Virus record (IMG/VR): IMGVR_UViG_2721755676_000001
Strand: one strand, 5' to 3'
Length of the DNA: 64,000 nt
DNA from: a virus
Lineage: Duplodnaviria; Heunggongvirae; Uroviricota; Caudoviricetes
In this document: in pieces, positions 34,493-53,800 of the stretch
Layout: each line of letters begins with the position of its first letter
Numbering within the stretch: position 1 is the stretch's first letter
Position numbers and translations under genes: made by a program
Notes under the pieces: model-generated
The model's input: the letters and a program-made list of their open reading frames with translations, nothing else
Databases searched by the model: none
Told to the model about the DNA's origin: nothing

Positions 34493-34510
34493 GATAAGTA
34501 AGTAACTACC
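34493..34510 (+). promoter_or_regulatory. junction motif GATAAGTAAGTAACTACC
   Basis: Read directly; TAA in three frames; 16 nt upstream of ATG 34526. Confidence 0.4.
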
Positions 34511-34525
34511 AACTAGGTGAGCCAC

Positions 34526-40628: not shown

Positions 40629-40840
40629 TCGTATTAAGTAAAAGGGAGAAAGAAACGCTTCATGAAATCAGTAAGTGGCCGGAGTTCCCTGAGTACTGGA
40701 AGCCTAAAACGCGAGCTAAGTTAGAGCGTTTAGGGTTGGTTGCAAACGTTTCTGAAACGTGGTGCTCGGCCAACTACCAGTTAACTGATAAAGGGAAAGT
40801 ATTGCTACAGCAATTAGTAGAATCAGGAGTGTTAAAATGA
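40625..40840 (+). CDS. hypothetical small protein
   Basis: Translationally coupled (ATGA overlaps) with ligase and next gene. Confidence 0.5.
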   Translation: MIVLSKREKETLHEISKWPEFPEYWKPKTRAKLERLGLVANVSETWCSANYQLTDKGKVLLQQLVESGVLK

Positions 40841-40989
40841 TTCCATACATCTCATTAGCTTTTATGGGTGGCTTCCTTATCGGCTTCGGCATCTGTCGTG
40901 ATTTAATTAAGCAGGAACTTAAAACCAAAACACTGTGCATCGGAAAGCGTGTGTATCGGGTAGTTCATGAAACAAAGGTTAGAAAATGA
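40837..40989 (+). CDS. small membrane protein (50 aa; not in ORF track)
   Basis: ATG 40837 overlaps upstream stop, stop overlaps next ATG at 40986; hydrophobic LAFMGGFLIGFGI. Confidence 0.4.
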   Translation: MIPYISLAFMGGFLIGFGICRDLIKQELKTKTLCIGKRVYRVVHETKVRK

Positions 40990-41276
40990 GCAATTTAACT
41001 TCTTGGGACTGGTGGTTGGCCACCTATTTCTTAGCGGCCGGAGTCGCATTCGCCTTTTACGTAGGTCAGTTAGTCGTAAAACTGCTGCTGATTAAATTTG
41101 CCAGTCATAAACGTATCGATGATGGTCTGTGGCGTCTTGGCACCCTGGTGGAAACTCGCTACGGGCAACTTAAGGAGAACGAAACCATTACTATCCAAGC
41201 GAAACGGTTCACTGCCACCATCACAAGAACACCTAGTCGTAGAGTGGCATTGATCAAAAAAGTCACAACCGAATAA
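40986..41276 (+). CDS. small membrane protein
   Basis: N-terminal TM WWLATYFLAAGVAFAFYVGQLVV; coupled to upstream ORF. Confidence 0.5.
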   Translation: MSNLTSWDWWLATYFLAAGVAFAFYVGQLVVKLLLIKFASHKRIDDGLWRLGTLVETRYGQLKENETITIQAKRFTATITRTPSRRVALIKKVTTE

Positions 41277-41285
41277 AAACATATT

Positions 41286-41313
41286 GATAAGTATTTACTT
41301 ACTTATCTTTTAT
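41286..41313 (+). terminator. stem-loop GATAAGTA-TTTACT-TACTTATC followed by TTTTAT (weak terminator; also a TAAGTA-family site)
   Basis: Read directly. Confidence 0.4.
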
Positions 41314-42054
41314 GTATAAGATGACTTTGTTTTCGTTGAGACGCGACTGTTTGAACTTAAATACAAGTGCAAACGAAGAAGTCTATCTGGCAGTAGCCTA
41401 ATAAGCCAAACACCAGCGAGGTCAGTTTCCAGCCTCGTTACCGAAATGGGACACACTGAGCGAGTGTGATTGCAGAACGCAGGAGGGAACATGAATGTTC
41501 CCTCCGATGAAGTAACAGAATGGGCGGTTGGTATATTTTCAACTCCATATGACTCCCGGATTCTTAGCCACTGACCGCCCATCCTGTTACGTCATTTTGT
41601 TCAATTATGTCGTTTATACTGGGTTAAAAAGCGGCGACGTAGCCCGGCTGGTATGGTTAGCCAGCACACAACGTTGAGGCCATTACATTTTTATCAATTC
41701 TAAGGTTCTATTCACAGAGATACCGGCGAGCGTTGATATGTAACATGTTGGGCAAACATTCAATCGGAGTAGTGGCCTCAACGTTGTGAAGACAGGATTG
41801 TTGTGTAGGTTTAACCACTGTTGCCATTGGTGCCTGTTTTCACAACAAATGATTCCATACATCACATTGTATAAATTACAAAGTAGGTGCTGTCCTCAGA
41901 AACATCATCTACTTAAAGATTTTGCCTTCTACTATTGAGCGAAGTCGAAAGCGTCTGGCACTAACGAAAAGTGCAAGTAGCGGTGCGTTTCCTGGCAGAA
42001 ACTAAACCGTTGCGATTGGCACTGTTGAGTAATAAATACTGGCAGTGCTGAATT

Positions 42055-42126
42055 GATGGTGTAGCTCAGCGGTAGAGCAGTTGGCTGTTAACCAACTGGT
42101 CGGTGGTTCGAATCCACCCACCATCG
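42055..42126 (+). tRNA. tRNA-Asn (anticodon GTT)
   Basis: Cloverleaf folded by hand: acceptor GATGGTG/CACCATC, anticodon loop CTGTTAA, T-arm GGTGG-TTCGAAT-CCACC, discriminator G then CCA. Confidence 0.85.
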
Positions 42127-42134
42127 CCAATTTA

Positions 42135-42218
42135 GGGGAGTTAGTCCGTAGGGGCAGCGGAGTAGACTGTAAATCTACTGTCATGGCGACTCGGGTGGTT
42201 CGACTCCATCACTCCCCA
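42135..42218 (+). tRNA. tRNA-Tyr (anticodon GTA), long variable arm
   Basis: Acceptor GGGGAGT/ACTCCCC, anticodon stem GTAGA/TCTAC with loop CTGTAAA, long variable arm, TTCGACT T-loop, CCA encoded. Confidence 0.8.
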
Positions 42219-42225
42219 CCAAATT

Positions 42226-42298
42226 GCCGGTTTAGCTCAGTTGGTAGAGCGCCTGCCTTGTAAGCAGGATGTCAGCGGTTCGAGTCCGCTAACCGGCA
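42226..42298 (+). tRNA. tRNA-Thr (anticodon TGT)
   Basis: Acceptor GCCGGTT/AACCGGC, D-arm GCTC-AGTTGGTA-GAGC, anticodon loop CTTGTAA, T-arm AGCGG-TTCGAGT-CCGCT, CCA encoded. Confidence 0.85.
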
Positions 42299-42525
42299 CC
42301 AATACAACGATAAGATCATTACGGTTAATCGTCGTTCATGTGCACAATGACTGGTCGAAAGGTAGTGATCTTACCGTTGTGGTGGATTCGCAGACTGATG
42401 CGATAGCTTTCTTGGATGTTAGGGAAATGCGGCCGCAAATCTTCCCTTTCGCGAGCGGTGATCGTCCGTAGTCCTAATTGGCTGCACCGTATGCCGGAGA
42501 TTCAGTACCGGCCACCACAACGGCC

Positions 42526-42609
42526 GGAGAGTAGGGAGCATGGTGCTCAAGCGGTCTTGAAAACCGTCCCATTGCGCAAGCGATGATGGTTCGATTCCAT
42601 TACTCTCCG
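42526..42609 (+). tRNA. tRNA-Ser (anticodon TGA), long variable arm
   Basis: Acceptor GGAGAGT/ACTCTCC, anticodon loop CTTGAAA, long variable arm, T-loop TTCGATT, discriminator G, CCA encoded. Confidence 0.7.
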
Positions 42610-42789
42610 CCAGACACAGCGTTGAGCGGTTTGGCCTTTTAATCACCCAGATTAAGACTCCGCTAACATAAACCAGACCGCTCAACGCTGTGATAGACAA
42701 TTACGGCAGACGTTCTTAACCATAGCTTGCTAACATCCTAGCAACACTTTTTTCAGCGCAAAATTCAAAGGGGCTTCGGCCCCTTTTTG

Positions 42790-44198: not shown

Positions 44199-44335
44199 TT
44201 AAAGACCACTTCACCCTTGCGTTCAGCTTCAGCTTTAGCAGTCATGAATCGTTTGATCATTTCGACTTTGCTAGCATGGATAGTTTTAAAATCAATCTTC
44301 CCTTTGTTTTGGGTAGTGTTGTGTTCGTATCGCAT
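44199..44335 (-). CDS. hypothetical small protein (45 aa; not in ORF track)
   Basis: Minus-strand ORF ATG 44335 to TAA 44199, overlapping the 3' end of the upstream minus-strand gene by 44 nt. Confidence 0.25.
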
Positions 44336-44846
44336 AGGAAGCTCCGTCATTTAAATAAGTTAGGCCACGCTCTTGTGTAAATCTCTTCACATATCTCTTG
44401 TATGTGGCCATCAGTTCTTCGCGTTCTGCCGCAAAGAATAAAATCTGTATGCCTTCATTGTCGGCAACTTTGAGCATTAAGTCAACTAAAGTACCGTAAA
44501 GGTATTGAAGTTCACCTAAAGTAAGATTAAAAGACCCTTCGGGTTTGGCAAATACGTTAATTGGCTCTTCCGCTCCAAGAGCAGCATTCTGGAGCTGTTC
44601 TTGCTGCCTGTCAAGTTGAATCATGTCCACAAAACTAACGACAGATACACACAACCCATAAACATCAGCACCTAACATATTATGCATAGTTTCTGCGGCA
44701 ACAGGATCTAAAGAAGGAGGGCAAAAGACTAAACGGTATCTAGCCTTACGAGCTTCATTGCCAGAGAAAACAAAGTCTATATCTAAATATGACAGATCAC
44801 CCGGCAATGAAGCCAAACCAGGTGTAACCAACTTATGCAAGTGCAT
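44292..44846 (-). CDS. hypothetical protein
   Basis: 184-aa minus-strand ORF divergent from the recombinase gene. Confidence 0.5.
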   Translation of the reverse strand: MHLHKLVTPGLASLPGDLSYLDIDFVFSGNEARKARYRLVFCPPSLDPVAAETMHNMLGADVYGLCVSVVSFVDMIQLDRQQEQLQNAALGAEEPINVFAKPEGSFNLTLGELQYLYGTLVDLMLKVADNEGIQILFFAAEREELMATYKRYVKRFTQERGLTYLNDGASYAIRTQHYPKQRED

Positions 44847-44985: not shown

Positions 44986-45012
44986 GATTCCATACCTACT
45001 ATGTATGGAATC
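44986..45012. repeat. perfect 10-bp inverted repeat GATTCCATAC-N7-GTATGGAATC in recombinase upstream region
   Basis: Read directly. Confidence 0.7.
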
Positions 45013-45113
45013 ATTAGTGAAAATGAGTTACTTTTACTCTTGATCCTATAAGAATCTATGCCTAATATACTGTTTACTTATACAGTGAATCGGCGTAACT
45101 CGGTGATTGTCAT

Positions 45114-50805: not shown

Positions 50806-53800
50806 CTTCTCACTTGGGGAGTCGGCTCTAAAAGCAGAAAACGCGGTGAAGATTGCCAGAGAAGCTGGCTACACCGCTGTAATTTCAGCAGATAGCATGA
50901 ATATTGCGAGCGTTATTCCACTACAACGTGCCGCTGGTGACGACATGGCGGTTATTTGTGGTGTGAAACTAAACATTGTTGATGATCCCACATACGAGCA
51001 CCGGGCTAAACTTGCTAAAGAATCTATGAGATGTATGGAATCATTAGAGCGAGGACGTAACTACTCGTTTACCGCTCTAATTAAAAATGAGAAAGGATAT
51101 CGCGACATCTGCGAACTAATGACGGCGGCCAACACACGAGAACAGTTCTACTTTGTACCGCGTCTCTCGCTCGAACAGTTGGTTTCTACATATGCCAAAG
51201 GCAACATCATCCTGCTTACTTCCGACATCGGTAGCGTGTTCCAACGCAACGATTTTGCAAAAATCATAAGCACACTGATTACAGCGGGTGGAAAAGACAA
51301 CTTCTATAGTGTGGTTTATCCGCACCCTACCCCATTCTACGACCAGATTAACGTCCGGGCGATGAAAGTCGCCAGCGCATTGAAAATAGAGCCAGTGGCG
51401 TTCTATCCCGCTTATTACGAATCGATCGACGATGCAGACATTAAAGACATTGCGCACATGGTTACGAACAACATCAAAATCGACCAGCCGCATCGTCTGC
51501 GTATCCCCCACCAGCGAGATAACGCCGTCAATGGTCGCCGCCATCTCCTTGAGGCGCTTAAAGCCTTCTCCGTTCGCATGGATGTGCCGGTAACAGCTGC
51601 AATGGCCTCAACAACGCAGGATACCATTATCGATGCCTGCACATGGCGCTGGCATGAATTGCCGCCAGCACTGCCAAAGATGGCAGACGACGAGCCTGCA
51701 ACGCTGATGAAACTGGCTGTTGCAGGGCTGCGTAAACGTCTTACCACAAAAGAGTTTGGCTACACACCACCTGCTTCTGAGAACAGGGTTTATGTTGAGC
51801 GGCTAAAGTACGAAATGGACACGCTGACTCGCCTGGGATTCTGTGGTTACTTCCTGATGGTGCGCGATCTGATGAATCATAGTTGTGAAACTGGCATTCC
51901 CGTTGGGCCTGGTCGTGGTTCCTCTGCCGGTTCTCTGGTGGCGTGGTGCATAGGCATAACCAACGTCGACCCAATCCGTCACGGTCTTCTGTTTGAGCGT
52001 TTCATCAACCCTGAGCGTCTCGACTTGCCGGATGCGGACTTGGACTTCAGCCAGGCACGTCGCCATGAGGTGATCGAGTATCTGAATGAACGCTACGGCG
52101 AAGATTACGTTGCAGGCATTCCGAACTTCACCTACCTGGGCGCAGCCTCTGCACTACGTGACACCGCTCGTATTTATGGTGTGGAGTCCGCAGATATGGC
52201 GGTATCAAAAGAGCTGAAGAACGTCGAGGATGATAGCCTTCCATTGGAAGAGCTGCGCGAACAACTGGCAAGTCTCGACAAATACGCAACAAAATATCCT
52301 GATGCATTCAATGCAGCCTGCAAGTTACAAAGTCTTATGCGTGGCTTTGGTAGACATGCGGCAGGGATGATCGTAGCAGGTGTTCCTCTGACAGAACGTA
52401 CACCGGTTGAACGCCGTGGTGACGCGCGTTGTATCGCATTTGACAAGCGTTACTGCGAGGCTATGGGCCTAATTAAACTGGACGTACTTGGTCTGGCAAC
52501 TCTCGATTTGCTCGATAGTGCAAAACGCTACATAAAAGAGAACACAGGTGAAGATATCAATCTTGATGCCATTTCTCTTGAAGATCGCAAGGTGCTGGAT
52601 GGTTTTGCTGCTGGGTACACTCAAGGTGTTTTCCAGCTTGAATCAGGCCCAATGCGCAAGCTGCTTAAAGATTTAGGTGGTGGAATTGAGCCAATGAGCT
52701 TTAAAACGGTTGTTGCTACGACTGCGCTCTTCCGGCCGGGGCCAATTCAGTCAGGCATGTTGGATGACTATGTTTCTGTAGCCAAAGGCTTTATGACGCC
52801 GGAATCATTACACCCCGTTCTTGATGAACTTACCGCAGAAACAAATGGCGTGATTCTCTATCAGGAACAGACGATGAACGCGACTCGATTGCTTGCTGGC
52901 TTCACAATGGCTGAAGCTGACGGCGTTCGTAAAGCGATCGGCAAAAAAGACATGGAAAAAATGAAGAGCATGGGCGAGAAGTTCATCGTTCAGGCTCAAG
53001 CTGGCTGGATAGACGTTGAGCTGGAAGATGGCACTACACAGCGCATTCACCGTGCGGAACATTTTAAATGCGAAGACGGAACTCTGAAAACTGTCGAAGA
53101 GGCACTTGAGTACGGCGCAAAACTACCTATAAACGCAGTACGCGTTACAGCGTCACATCCAGGGCTATCAGAGATGAAAGCGAAGGAGATCTGGACCGCA
53201 TTCGAAAAGAATGGTGCCTACCAGTTCAACAAATCACACTCTGTTGCTTACTCCTTAATCAGTTATCAATCTATGTGGTTGAAAACTCATTATCCCGCGG
53301 AGTTCTTCGCTGCTGCTCTCACTATTCTTGGCGAAGATAAACACCAGGGGCTGGTTAAAGATGCGCTGACCTATGGTATTCGCGTATTGCCACCAGACGT
53401 TAACGTGTCATCTAACCGAATCGAGATCCGCACGCTTGAAGATGGCAGCCAGGTGCTGTATGCGCCCTTCTCTGCTGTGAAAGGGTGTTCTGAGAATGGC
53501 TGCCAAGCCATCATGAGAGCGCGAGAAAAAGTTGGCGGCAAATTCGAGTCACTGGCGCAATTCGAAGAAGCTGTCGAGAAACGTGCCTGTAATAGTCGAG
53601 TGCGCGAATCGCTGCAAAAAGTAGGGGCGTTTGCATCCATCGAGCCAGGCAGTCTGCCAGCAACTGATCCAGAGCGCCTACGCGACCAGGCTGAATTGAT
53701 GGGAAACCTTGTCATAGATGCAGTTAAAGCCTCACGTCCGTTTGAGATGAACCCCAAACGTTCGGCTGAAATTAACGTACTCATGACGCGGATGGCGGCT

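Follow-up and report, generated by a model that had tools for sequence, protein, structure and literature searches.

The region at positions 41277–42054 of a 64,000-nucleotide (nt) stretch of viral DNA (IMG/VR record IMGVR_UViG_2721755676_000001; the whole stretch is hereafter the window), which represents an SSU5-like phage-plasmid of Escherichia coli, begins with an RNA module that is very probably a functional derivative of tmRNA (transfer-messenger RNA, encoded by ssrA). The module is not itself a tmRNA, as it keeps the template half and we could not find the tRNA-like domain that defines tmRNA. It constitutes a widespread, unannotated RNA family in enterobacterial phages, phage-plasmids and prophages of Shiga toxin-producing E. 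coli (STEC). Judged from the sequences, the best overall explanation, which we hold tentatively, is that this tmRNA-derived module would act on the host tmRNA–SmpB system, masking the host template and perhaps offering its own.

All parts of a tmRNA-type mRNA-like region were found in the module, namely the resume codon, the bases required upstream of it, a selected tag open reading frame (ORF) and stop codons. The frame at 41369–41404 (GCA AAC GAA GAA GTC TAT CTG GCA GTA GCC TAA TAA) encodes the peptide ANEEVYLAVA followed by two stops; the tag of E. coli tmRNA, for comparison, is ANDENYALAA, also with two stops. Across 128 loci among the matches listed, the frame occurs as 26 distinct DNAs encoding 15 peptides and is always exactly 10 codons long (codon by codon changes are given in Table 1). 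Searches that did not fix the end of the tag recovered ANDDVVLMAA and ANDDLMLMAA (STEC and other prophages) and ANDNTFLAVA (Cba120). Positions −6, −4 and −3 before the resume codon are invariably A, matching A84 and A86 of E. coli tmRNA, residues known to fix the frame at resumption (PMC2481249). The only Rfam families with even weak hits in these loci were tmRNA families, at the tag (14–26 bits, against thresholds of 47–84). The tag frame is not preceded by a canonical start codon. Stops interrupt the +2 frame in 9 of 22 sequences, and only some families have a start codon in the +1 frame; a mini-ORF in that frame (ATG/GTG CAA ACG...TAG) was rejected because it lacks a start in Cba120 and in the SSU5/Klebsiella types (CTG) and because changes among its middle residues are non-conservative. 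An in-frame ATG upstream of the tag (41321) was likewise rejected, as lambdoid types carry an in-frame TAG eight codons upstream and no start codon. In a screen of C-terminal degrons, terminal Ala-Ala was dominant and LVA was a strong ClpX degron; AVA is absent from the main text of that report (bioRxiv 10.1101/2024.01.29.576913).

The structures downstream of the tag partly resemble those of tmRNA. A hairpin resembling tmRNA helix 5 and two pseudoknots, here termed a and b, are strongly supported by a 29-sequence alignment, in which 99.1% of cells are paired and double changes occur in eight pairs (57 cells); none of 500 shuffles reached the covariation score, and slid controls were 25%–49% paired. 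Stems 1 and 2 of pseudoknot a have three and two pairs with double changes, respectively, and are 98.6%–100% paired in this alignment. A custom parse of 90 distinct sequences identified six fully complementary variants of stem 1 of pseudoknot a and, in most families, three variants of stem 2 (CCAG/CUGG, CCGA/UCGG and CCAA/UUGG), while stem 2 is shifted to the UUCCA/UGGGA type in the SSU5-like phage-plasmids and in a deeper-branching group (L015 group) of phage-plasmids of plant-associated Enterobacter and Cronobacter. Stem 1 of pseudoknot b has seven variants, all with six of six positions paired. Its stem 2 is replaced entirely in other families, with complementarity kept (GCCC/GGGC, GCCCUGA/UCAGGGC, GCCCAC/GUGGGC or, in Cba120, GGCGGGAG/CUCCCGCC). 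The module has no counterpart of tmRNA pseudoknot 1 (PK1) and no supported closing helix: the helix predicted at 41343–41350/41472–41481 is invariant and not kept in other families. Two other candidate pairings were discarded, one between the 5' end and 41949–41975, whose pairs are either invariant or lineage-specific, and one between GUUUUCG and the pseudoknot linker CGAAA, which varies while the motif is constant.

Nothing in the module varies less than its 5' end, (U)AGUUUUCGU...GCGAC(U), a block complementary to E. coli tmRNA nt 97–105 (codons 3–5, GAC GAA AAC U) and nt 86–91 (AGUC followed by GC, positions −4 to +2). This arm stands at the transcript start wherever a consensus promoter is present. 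When complete arms were compared with the whole 363-nt tmRNA, the best site was nt 85–107 for 44 of 46 distinct arms, and the mean duplex energy was −21.3 kcal/mol with the host RNA versus −9.8 kcal/mol with the module's own resume region, the host duplex being the stronger in all 46. Aligned with the reverse complement of ssrA, the first ~40 nt scored 27–42 in the lambdoid, Carvaje, Webervirus, Cba120 and Felixounavirus types (none of 500 shuffles), over ssrA nt 68–106 (in one type to nt 53), a span from the 3' half of PK1 through the linker and resume codon into codons 1–5. Dinucleotide shuffles gave duplexes as good in 3 (L010), 6 (L127) and 0 (L021) of 400 cases for three lambdoid/Webervirus arms. 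For the arm in the window, the best site on the whole of E. coli tmRNA is nt 85–105 (−21.2 kcal/mol; 12 of 400 shuffles as good). Other complementary 7-mers between module and tmRNA were at chance level. The antisense segment is complementary beyond chance across the family, with only moderate support in the lineage of the window. The host target ATAGTCGCAAACGACGAAAACTACGC is identical in most of 120 Enterobacterales species representatives; the tmRNA resume region differs in Pasteurellaceae (GACGAACAAUAC) and some Yersinia (AAUAAUUGCAAACGACUCGCAA). The arm is fixed while the module's own codons 3–6 and −1 triplet vary, and the host target is constant, as would be consistent with selection on pairing to the host RNA and not to the module's own sequence. 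The module is an imperfect inverted repeat derived from the resume region of host tmRNA, and the chance that its arm acts on that RNA seems to us somewhat better than even.

A profile hidden Markov model built from representatives placed the module at 41327–41495, its single copy in the window, with one copy per locus. By BLAST, only the first ~150 nt of the region have relatives outside SSU5-like elements (74%–89% identity, ~400 phage genomes). The module is common to six phage groups, in which it always adjoins tRNAs or lies in the late leader between Q and holin genes; beyond SSU5-like elements, it occurs in Felixounavirus, Kuttervirus, Webervirus, Carvaje and lambdoid prophages. In Felixounavirus it lies within the tRNA cluster behind a perfect TTGACA-17-TATAGT promoter, in Webervirus-like and Carvaje-like siphoviruses upstream of tRNA-Ser/Arg/Met, and in HK620 and lambdoid prophages (including those of STEC) in a kilobase of non-coding DNA that separates the genes for the Q antiterminator and the holin. 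Felixounavirus and Webervirus promoters (TTGACA-17-TATAGT or TTGACA-17-TAGATT) end 7 nt before the conserved 5' end of the module. Among complete E. coli genomes, 349 of 5426 carry the module (141 chromosomal places, 218 on plasmids), and the PGAP annotation has nothing on these copies save two ordinary protein-coding sequences under short partial hits. A pattern scan of IMG/VR returned at least 120 loci; these came from a looser pattern, a stricter one (TGCAAACGANNNNNNTNTCTGGCNGTAGC) having no matches.

No locus contained a tRNA-like domain, which is why we do not class the module as a tmRNA. ARAGORN called no tmRNA in the window, and none in 129 of the 132 loci scanned. Its three calls were the E. 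coli ssrA control (L003) and two phage loci (Moogle and L109), where a "permuted tmRNA" with the tag ANDNVFLAVA was assembled. These two calls are artefacts, as the 5' tRNA domain lies inside a tRNA-Lys gene, while a tRNA-like fragment with G73 and no G3:U70, located 560 nt upstream, supplies the 3' domain; they explain the ssrA gene stated in the Moogle genome announcement, which was found with ARAGORN (PMC4319497). At gathering thresholds, Rfam models detected only tRNAs in the whole 64-kb window, and apart from tRNAs and the sub-threshold tmRNA hits no YrlA, GOLLD, ROOL or other family was found at E ≤ 1 in the region or at E ≤ 1–5 in five related loci and Cba120. There is no T-loop in 41277–42054 except a degenerate UUCAACU in a variable loop, and none of the four tRNAs of the window has G3:U70. 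Upstream of the module, where the acceptor piece of a two-piece tmRNA would be sought, Felixounavirus and Webervirus have a promoter instead, and the window a putative one.

Several tRNA-like oddities occur near the module in other phages. The fragment used in the Moogle call (L251, ~1478–1560) looks circularly permuted and consists of a T-arm, a 3' acceptor strand ACCCUUC, G, CCA, AACA, the matching 5' acceptor strand GAAGGGU and a D-arm-like sequence; it is a tandem pair of degenerate copies or else a tRNA-like gene in permuted order. In some Felixounaviruses (wV8 [L005, ~2703–2786], L022, L025, L035, L059, L087, L090 and L119), tRNA-Arg(UCU) downstream of the module is replaced by an odd tRNA-like gene not called by ARAGORN, which has no D-arm and a long variable region, keeps CUUCUAA as its anticodon loop although the anticodon stem has undergone a compensatory change, and carries G3:U70, A73 and an encoded CCA (alanine identity). 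As a candidate for the missing tRNA-like domain, this element was rejected because it sits in the tRNA-Arg(UCU) slot, keeps the anticodon loop and is absent elsewhere. In Cba120 (L129, 769–2938), a gene-free region of 2.1 kb holds the module, several very long hairpins and tRNA-like pieces with good T-arms and 7-bp acceptor-like stems (e.g., GACGAGG...GUGUGGUUCGAUUCCACAC CCUCGUC), called neither by ARAGORN nor by the Rfam tRNA model.

We propose that the phage RNA would act on the host tmRNA–SmpB system as follows. The arm would anneal to host tmRNA at the resume site and mask the host tag template, as laboratory anti-ssrA oligonucleotides do; such oligonucleotides block release from stalled ribosomes in vitro and are routine in cell-free systems (PMC3384345), making this masking mechanistically plausible. 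The phage strand would leave the duplex at its PK1-proximal end and run 5' to 3' through an A/U-rich linker of 15–35 nt to its own A(−4)–GCA resume site, a geometry in which a ribosome rescued by host tmRNA–SmpB could be offered the phage template. Stalled proteins would then receive a phage tag (...YLAVA or ...LMAA) instead of ...YALAA. Such a tag swap, in which the phage RNA replaces the host tag template on the rescued ribosome, would reconcile the missing tRNA-like domain with the constraint on the tag as a peptide and the conservation of the resume determinants, although on sequence grounds we regard it as possible but doubtful.

A number of observations weigh against this proposal. To our knowledge, there is no precedent for the hand-over of a template between two RNAs during trans-translation, and a translocating ribosome might simply unwind an A/U-rich duplex of 10–16 bp. 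The arm in the window's lineage is the most diverged (10 + 6 bp), with a modest duplex (p ~0.03), and by alignment only its 8-nt core matches antisense ssrA (134 of 500 shuffles). Duplex-energy shuffles were not significant for the Felix, Cba120 and L015 arms, nor was a first duplex test with 22-nt segments. In the minimum free energy structure the arm is predicted to pair, weakly, in cis with the module's own codons 2–4, and the inverted repeat might thus be self-structure; this pairing suggests a strand-exchange switch and equally weakens the accessibility of the arm. The target is invariant among the sampled hosts, leaving no covariation between arm and target to be scored: the Yersinia pestis pMT1 arm is of the unchanged SSU5 type, and the Enterobacter/Cronobacter hosts of the L015 group have a standard tmRNA. 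The ratio of nonsynonymous to synonymous polymorphism (pN/pS) in the tag frame is only 0.71, since the middle codons are variable. Finally, the pattern used for most of the sample fixes CTGGCNGTAGC, biasing it toward the LAVA end, and only three loci came from unbiased searches.

The same arm could belong to a pure antisense inhibitor or decoy, which blocks host tmRNA or triggers its cleavage, with a phage tag that is never translated and a tmRNA-like half that only stabilises the RNA or soaks up template-recognising factors (S1, RNase R). Complementarity to the host is shared with our proposal, antisense oligonucleotides alone suffice to block trans-translation in vitro, and there is no tRNA-like domain to deliver a template. 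However, the frame is constrained as a peptide (four positions change only synonymously and positions 3, 4 and 6 conservatively, the length is fixed at 10 codons and the stops are kept), the A residues at −4 and −6 needed for resume-codon choice are invariant, and a decoy working at the RNA level does not predict variation at wobble positions; we consider this explanation unlikely. Less likely still, in our estimation, is the coding piece of a genuine two-piece tmRNA, joined by base pairing to an acceptor piece elsewhere in the phage or to an odd tRNA-like element of the cluster. Weak Rfam hits to permuted and two-piece tmRNA families, the ARAGORN calls in Moogle and L109 with the ssrA reported for Moogle (PMC4319497), the D-armless gene with G3:U70, A73 and CCA ~50 nt after the module in some Felixounaviruses, and the T-arm-containing stems adjoining the module in Carvaje, some lambdoid loci and Cba120 all favor it. 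Against this, the ARAGORN calls are assembly artefacts, the G3:U70 element occupies a tRNA-Arg(UCU) slot with its anticodon loop kept and is absent from sister phages, and no tRNA-like partner is common to the families, as the window and other SSU5-like loci have only ordinary tRNAs and HK620-type loci have no tRNA-like element whatsoever.

The region might alternatively be a leader that serves only the processing, stability or expression of a tRNA operon, with the tmRNA-like segment as the relic of a captured ssrA fragment. The element is always found with tRNAs or in a leader, its stems of at least 20 bp resemble RNase III sites, and its 3' 560 nt are lineage-specific. Yet a relic would not keep ~75% identity across unrelated phage families, nor the arm, the resume motifs, an open 10-codon frame and covarying pseudoknots, and lambdoid copies have no adjoining tRNA; there is little to recommend this account, slightly less even than the two-piece one. 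The initial annotation of the region had offered a structured non-coding RNA, an origin of replication, or a recombination or packaging site. Inverted repeats are common at DNA sites of the latter kinds, and a dispersed 16-mer at 41848–41863 is a possible protein target. Nevertheless, we found no DnaA boxes in or adjoining 41277–42054, no iterons or tandem repeats in the region, and no turn in GC skew except that from the change in gene orientation after 42790, so that an origin, packaging or recombination site is not supported. Base-pair covariation, with G.U pairs specific to one strand, argues for an RNA rather than a DNA function, and phages that replicate and package their DNA in quite different ways carry the 5' module. 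A DNA-level element is therefore very improbable. The structured RNA is what stands of the initial annotation: the region is non-coding, is kept in hundreds of SSU5-like phage-plasmids, and has compensatory and wobble changes that fit the plus strand; the tmRNA-derived module in its 5' 170 nt had been missed.

Table 1. Features of the region, the tag frame and the downstream unit (window coordinates; codon rows give the variants among loci)
Feature	Position	Strand	Evidence or remark
AT-rich conserved box (AAGTATTTACTTACTTATC ... TATAAG, 41315–41320), putative promoter of the RNA	41284–41320	+	Conservation across SSU5-like relatives
5' antisense arm: GUUUUCGUUG (41329–41338) and GCGACU (41343–41348)	41329–41348	+	Complementary to host tmRNA nt 95–104 and 86–91; one window copy
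tmRNA-type mRNA-like region: A at −6/−4/−3, resume codon GCA 41369, tag ANEEVYLAVA 41369–41398, stops TAA TAA 41399–41404	41363–41404	+	Read from sequence
Tag codon 1: GCA/GCT			Synonymous only
Tag codon 2: AAC/AAT, once AAA (Lys)			Near-synonymous
Tag codon 3: D/E, once S			Conservative
Tag codon 4: D/E/N/T			Conservative
Tag codon 5			Free
Tag codon 6: TAT/TAC/TTT/TTC (Y/F)			V or M in LMAA type
Tag codon 7: CTG/TTG			Synonymous only
Tag codons 8–9: A-V or M-A			
Tag codon 10: GCC/GCT/GCG			Synonymous only
Tag stop: TAA/TAG/TGA			Synonymous only
Hairpin UGGC/GCCA (GCYA across family), stop codons in loop, like tmRNA helix 5	41388–41408	+	97.4% of cells paired, G-C/G.U exchanges, one double change, 29 sequences
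Pseudoknot a: stem 1 CGAGG/CCUCG 41417–41421/41433–41437; stem 2 UUCCA/UGGGA 41427–41431/41447–41451	41417–41451	+	
Pseudoknot b: stem 1 CACACU/AGUGUG 41452–41457/41463–41468; stem 2 GCG/CGC 41460–41462/41478–41480	41452–41480	+	Stem 2 short in SSU5-like lineage
Hairpin formed by the 11-bp palindrome	41482–41505	+	Five pairs with compensatory double changes (19 SSU5-like sequences); loop length variable
Long helix, 22-nt arms, variable apical loop	41507–41595	+	Only changes between G.U and G-C/A-U, almost no breaks (19 SSU5-like sequences)
Helix 41605–41614/41633–41642	within 41605–41665	+	Nearly invariant, one wobble change
Hairpin 41647–41652/41660–41665	within 41605–41665	+	One G-C to A-U double change; changes between C-G and U.G
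20-bp stem CACAACGUUGAGGCCAUUAC/GUAGUGGCCUCAACGUUGUG around 82 nt	41667–41788	+	Three compensatory pairs
Hairpin GUUGUGAAGACAGG/CCUGUUUUCACAAC, GUUGUG in common with the 41667–41788 stem	41783–41846	+	Inverted repeat; same layout in lambdoid and Webervirus loci
16-mer AATGATTCCATACATC	41848–41863	+	One of four window copies (0 expected); invariant in SSU5-like relatives
3' segment: hairpins GCACU/AGUGC 41958–41974, GCGG stem from 41980, lineage-specific hairpin 42018–42049	41865–42054	+	Ends at tRNA-Asn
Downstream part of same predicted unit	42055–42786	+	tRNA-Asn/-Tyr/-Thr 42055–42301, tRNA-Ser 42526–42612, terminator 42767–42786
Stems within downstream part	42299–42385, 42374–42523, 42615–42692	+	Around tRNA-Ser

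As RNA, the plus strand of 41327–42054 folds with −254.7 kcal/mol, versus −195.6 ± 8.8 kcal/mol in dinucleotide shuffles (z −6.7, 0 of 20), and the minus strand with −231.9 kcal/mol (z −7.0); the 23 kcal/mol by which the plus strand is more stable are expected if G.U pairs matter. The three inverted repeats listed in the initial annotation are indeed present. The perfect 11-bp palindrome has its arms at 41482–41492/41495–41505, the GGGCGGT/ACCGCCC arms form the inner part of 22-nt arms at 41507–41528/41574–41595 (91% complementary, 45 nt between), and the 20-nt repeat lies at 41667–41686/41769–41788, 82 nt apart, its lone "mismatch" being a U.G wobble on the plus strand. Beyond these, we identified helices at 41605–41614/41633–41642, 41647–41652/41660–41665 and 41783–41796/41833–41846, the last of which was not predicted by RNAalifold. 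Helix covariation was assessed in 19 non-redundant SSU5-like sequences (Table 1); the L015 group adds two compensatory pairs in helix 41507–41595 (ACAGAAUGGG/CCCAUCCUGU versus ACGAGAUGGG/CCCAUCUCGU), and in one relative (L107) the 5' arm and interior of the 41667–41788 stem are deleted. The 3' segment (41865–42054) is less conserved, with one stem showing two double changes. The claim that the region has no credible ORF also held, as neither minus-strand ORF (41310–41582 and 41683–41865) matched a PHROG family, Pfam gave no match for one and a sub-threshold Fumarate_red_C match for the other (E 0.033, 14.7 bits versus a cut-off of 24.2), and both are disrupted in relatives by indels of 1–2 nt. 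All flanking ORFs, by comparison, match PHROGs.

While 41482–42054 is specific to SSU5-like elements, the CACAAC...GUUGUG clamp of its 41667–41788 stem also occurs 3' of the module in other phage families. The layout CACAAC...GUUGUG...CACAAC (41667–41846) is repeated around tRNA-Ser at 42299–42523 and 42615–42692, and is likewise seen 3' of the module in other families. We read these clamp stems and hairpins as candidate punctuation or processing structures of a polycistronic RNA, and the 560 nt after the module as a lineage-specific structured RNA that probably supplies spacing and processing signals for module and tRNAs. In several phage families that are unrelated to one another, the module and tRNAs have on their flanks long stems of conserved sequence (CACAAC / AGGUAAGAGCA ... 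UGCUCUUUCC / GUUGUGGUG ... CCACCACAAC; window 42299–42385, 42374–42523 and 42615–42692; L004 2377–2461 and 2628–2830; L130 1620–1880). In some phages (Carvaje, L010) these stems enclose T-arm-like hairpins; phage RNA operons seem to share them as modules for punctuation or processing. A reading of these stems as Y RNA (YrlA) was rejected, there being no model match and the T-arm geometry being wrong.

The region follows three small plus-strand genes with PHROG matches, the last of which ends at 41276, and precedes four plus-strand tRNAs (Asn, Tyr and Thr at 42055–42301; Ser at 42526–42612) and a rho-independent terminator (42767–42786). We interpret it as the 5' part of a plus-strand non-coding RNA operon composed of the structured leader, the four tRNAs and the terminator. 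The AT-rich box at 41284–41320 is a putative promoter for the structured RNA and received no score in a consensus promoter scan. One further, diverged copy of AAGTATTTACTTACTTATC (41289–41307, plus strand) lies at 34493–34511 on the minus strand (16 of 19 identical, 0.01 expected), and the two may represent a phage-specific promoter element. In lysogens of Cyrano, a near-identical phage-plasmid, CYRAN_40 is transcribed at 15 times the local background (PMC9928086); CYRAN_40 is a spurious ORF over tRNA-Thr/Ser, and its transcript is thus indirect evidence for expression of the tRNA part of the unit.

Sequences 99%–100% identical to 41277–42054 are found in many E. coli plasmids, with 98.8% identity to Cyrano, and the region is kept at ~78%–84% in Salmonella (SSU5, pHCM2), Klebsiella, Enterobacter, Citrobacter, Cronobacter and Y. 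pestis pMT1. Relatives were detected in 772 plasmid records, including those of Klebsiella, Salmonella Typhi pHCM2 and Y. pestis pMT1. The tRNA set after the leader varies among near-identical phage-plasmids (window 42135–42221 and related loci), with tRNA-Tyr and tRNA-Ser present or absent and tRNA-Asn nearly constant. In pMT1 (L252, 601–1125), the module (tag ANEDTYLAVA) and structured RNA are kept as far as the equivalent of window position 41788, where the sequence ends and gives way to caf1R of the F1 capsule locus; tRNA-Asn and everything after it have apparently been lost. Copies of the 16-mer AATGATTCCATACATC lie at 40836–40851 (+), 41848–41863 (+), 45000–45015 (−) and 51030–51045 (−). 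The first overlaps the start codon of a 50-amino acid (aa) ORF at 40837; the copy near 45000 is a perfect 13-bp palindrome (AATGATTCCATAC...GTATGGAATCATT) upstream of a 184-aa ORF (44292–44846), which by size and position corresponds to Cyrano CYRAN_43, expressed in lysogens at 723-fold over background (PMC9928086). The 16-mer looks like a dispersed operator or other protein-binding site.

Among known systems, the module shares with one-piece tmRNA (SsrA of E. coli, RF00023) a GCA resume codon after an A-rich stretch (A at both −4 and −6), a tag of 10 codons, the same length as ANDENYALAA, that starts A-N-D/E and has Y/F at position 6, and tandem stops in a hairpin loop followed by H-type pseudoknots. 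In contrast to that RNA, it has no acceptor stem with G3:U70, no T-arm, no CCA end and no P2 helix; an arm antisense to tmRNA takes the place of PK1, there are only two pseudoknots, the tag ends in LAVA or LMAA rather than ALAA, and Rfam scores reach 14–26 bits versus 47–84. With two-piece tmRNAs (Alphaproteobacteria, Betaproteobacteria and cyanobacteria; RF01850, RF04321), it has in common a coding RNA without a whole tRNA-like domain, and these families gave the best of the weak Rfam hits, including the pseudoknot after the tag. True two-piece tmRNAs, however, have the acceptor piece encoded beside the coding piece, which starts with the 5' acceptor strand, and the module has neither an adjacent acceptor piece nor such a start. 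Stable non-tRNA RNAs are co-transcribed with the tRNA cluster of T4 (species 1 and 2), and lambdoid pR'–tR' leaders yield the 6S RNA and StxS. The module resembles these in genomic setting (tRNA operon or Q-to-holin late leader), but we know of no sequence or structural relation between them, nor of a tmRNA-like tag frame in any. The classic anti-ssrA oligonucleotide contains ...GTAGTTTTCGTCGTTTGCGACTA, nearly the lambdoid-type arm AGTTTTCGTCACGTTAGCGACT. Synthetic anti-ssrA oligonucleotides, used in ribosome display and cell-free translation, are likewise antisense to the tag-template region of tmRNA and suppress the release of nascent chains from stalled ribosomes (PMC3384345), yet they are man-made DNA without a template, whereas the phage RNA occurs naturally, pairs imperfectly and brings a replacement template with it.

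Phage-borne derivatives of tmRNA have been described previously. Among 543 RefSeq bacterial viruses surveyed by Hudson et al. (2014; PMC4131195), eight mycobacteriophages were the only ones with ssrA, and none was reported in enterobacterial phages, Bacillus phage G and DS6A being added from outside the RefSeq set. The mycobacteriophage DS6A carries a tmRNA fragment consisting only of the tRNA-like domain (TLD), and a similar TLD-only molecule inhibits tmRNA, perhaps by titrating SmpB (PMC4131195). The module is thus comparable to these as a phage-borne tmRNA derivative, and to DS6A as half a tmRNA. Known phage tmRNAs are nonetheless complete save that of DS6A, which has little beyond the tRNA-like half, while the module keeps the opposite half (template and pseudoknots) and adds an antisense arm.

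The module is common and unannotated, including in therapeutic-candidate phages (Felixounavirus, Kuttervirus), and since ARAGORN occasionally reports it as a "permuted tmRNA", it bears on the interpretation of phage tRNA clusters. Should the tag swap prove wrong, the computed evidence for the tag frame, for both covarying pseudoknots and for the antisense arm would still stand, and these features merit an Rfam family. Bacteria rescue ribosomes and control the quality of translation mainly by trans-translation, on which some phages are known to depend. If our reading is true, the module would represent a new class among tmRNA derivatives, mirroring the TLD-only fragment of DS6A, and a tag swap would be the first trans-acting reprogramming of trans-translation; a phage RNA that is half antisense and half replacement template would then represent a new viral way to manipulate the translation quality control of the host.

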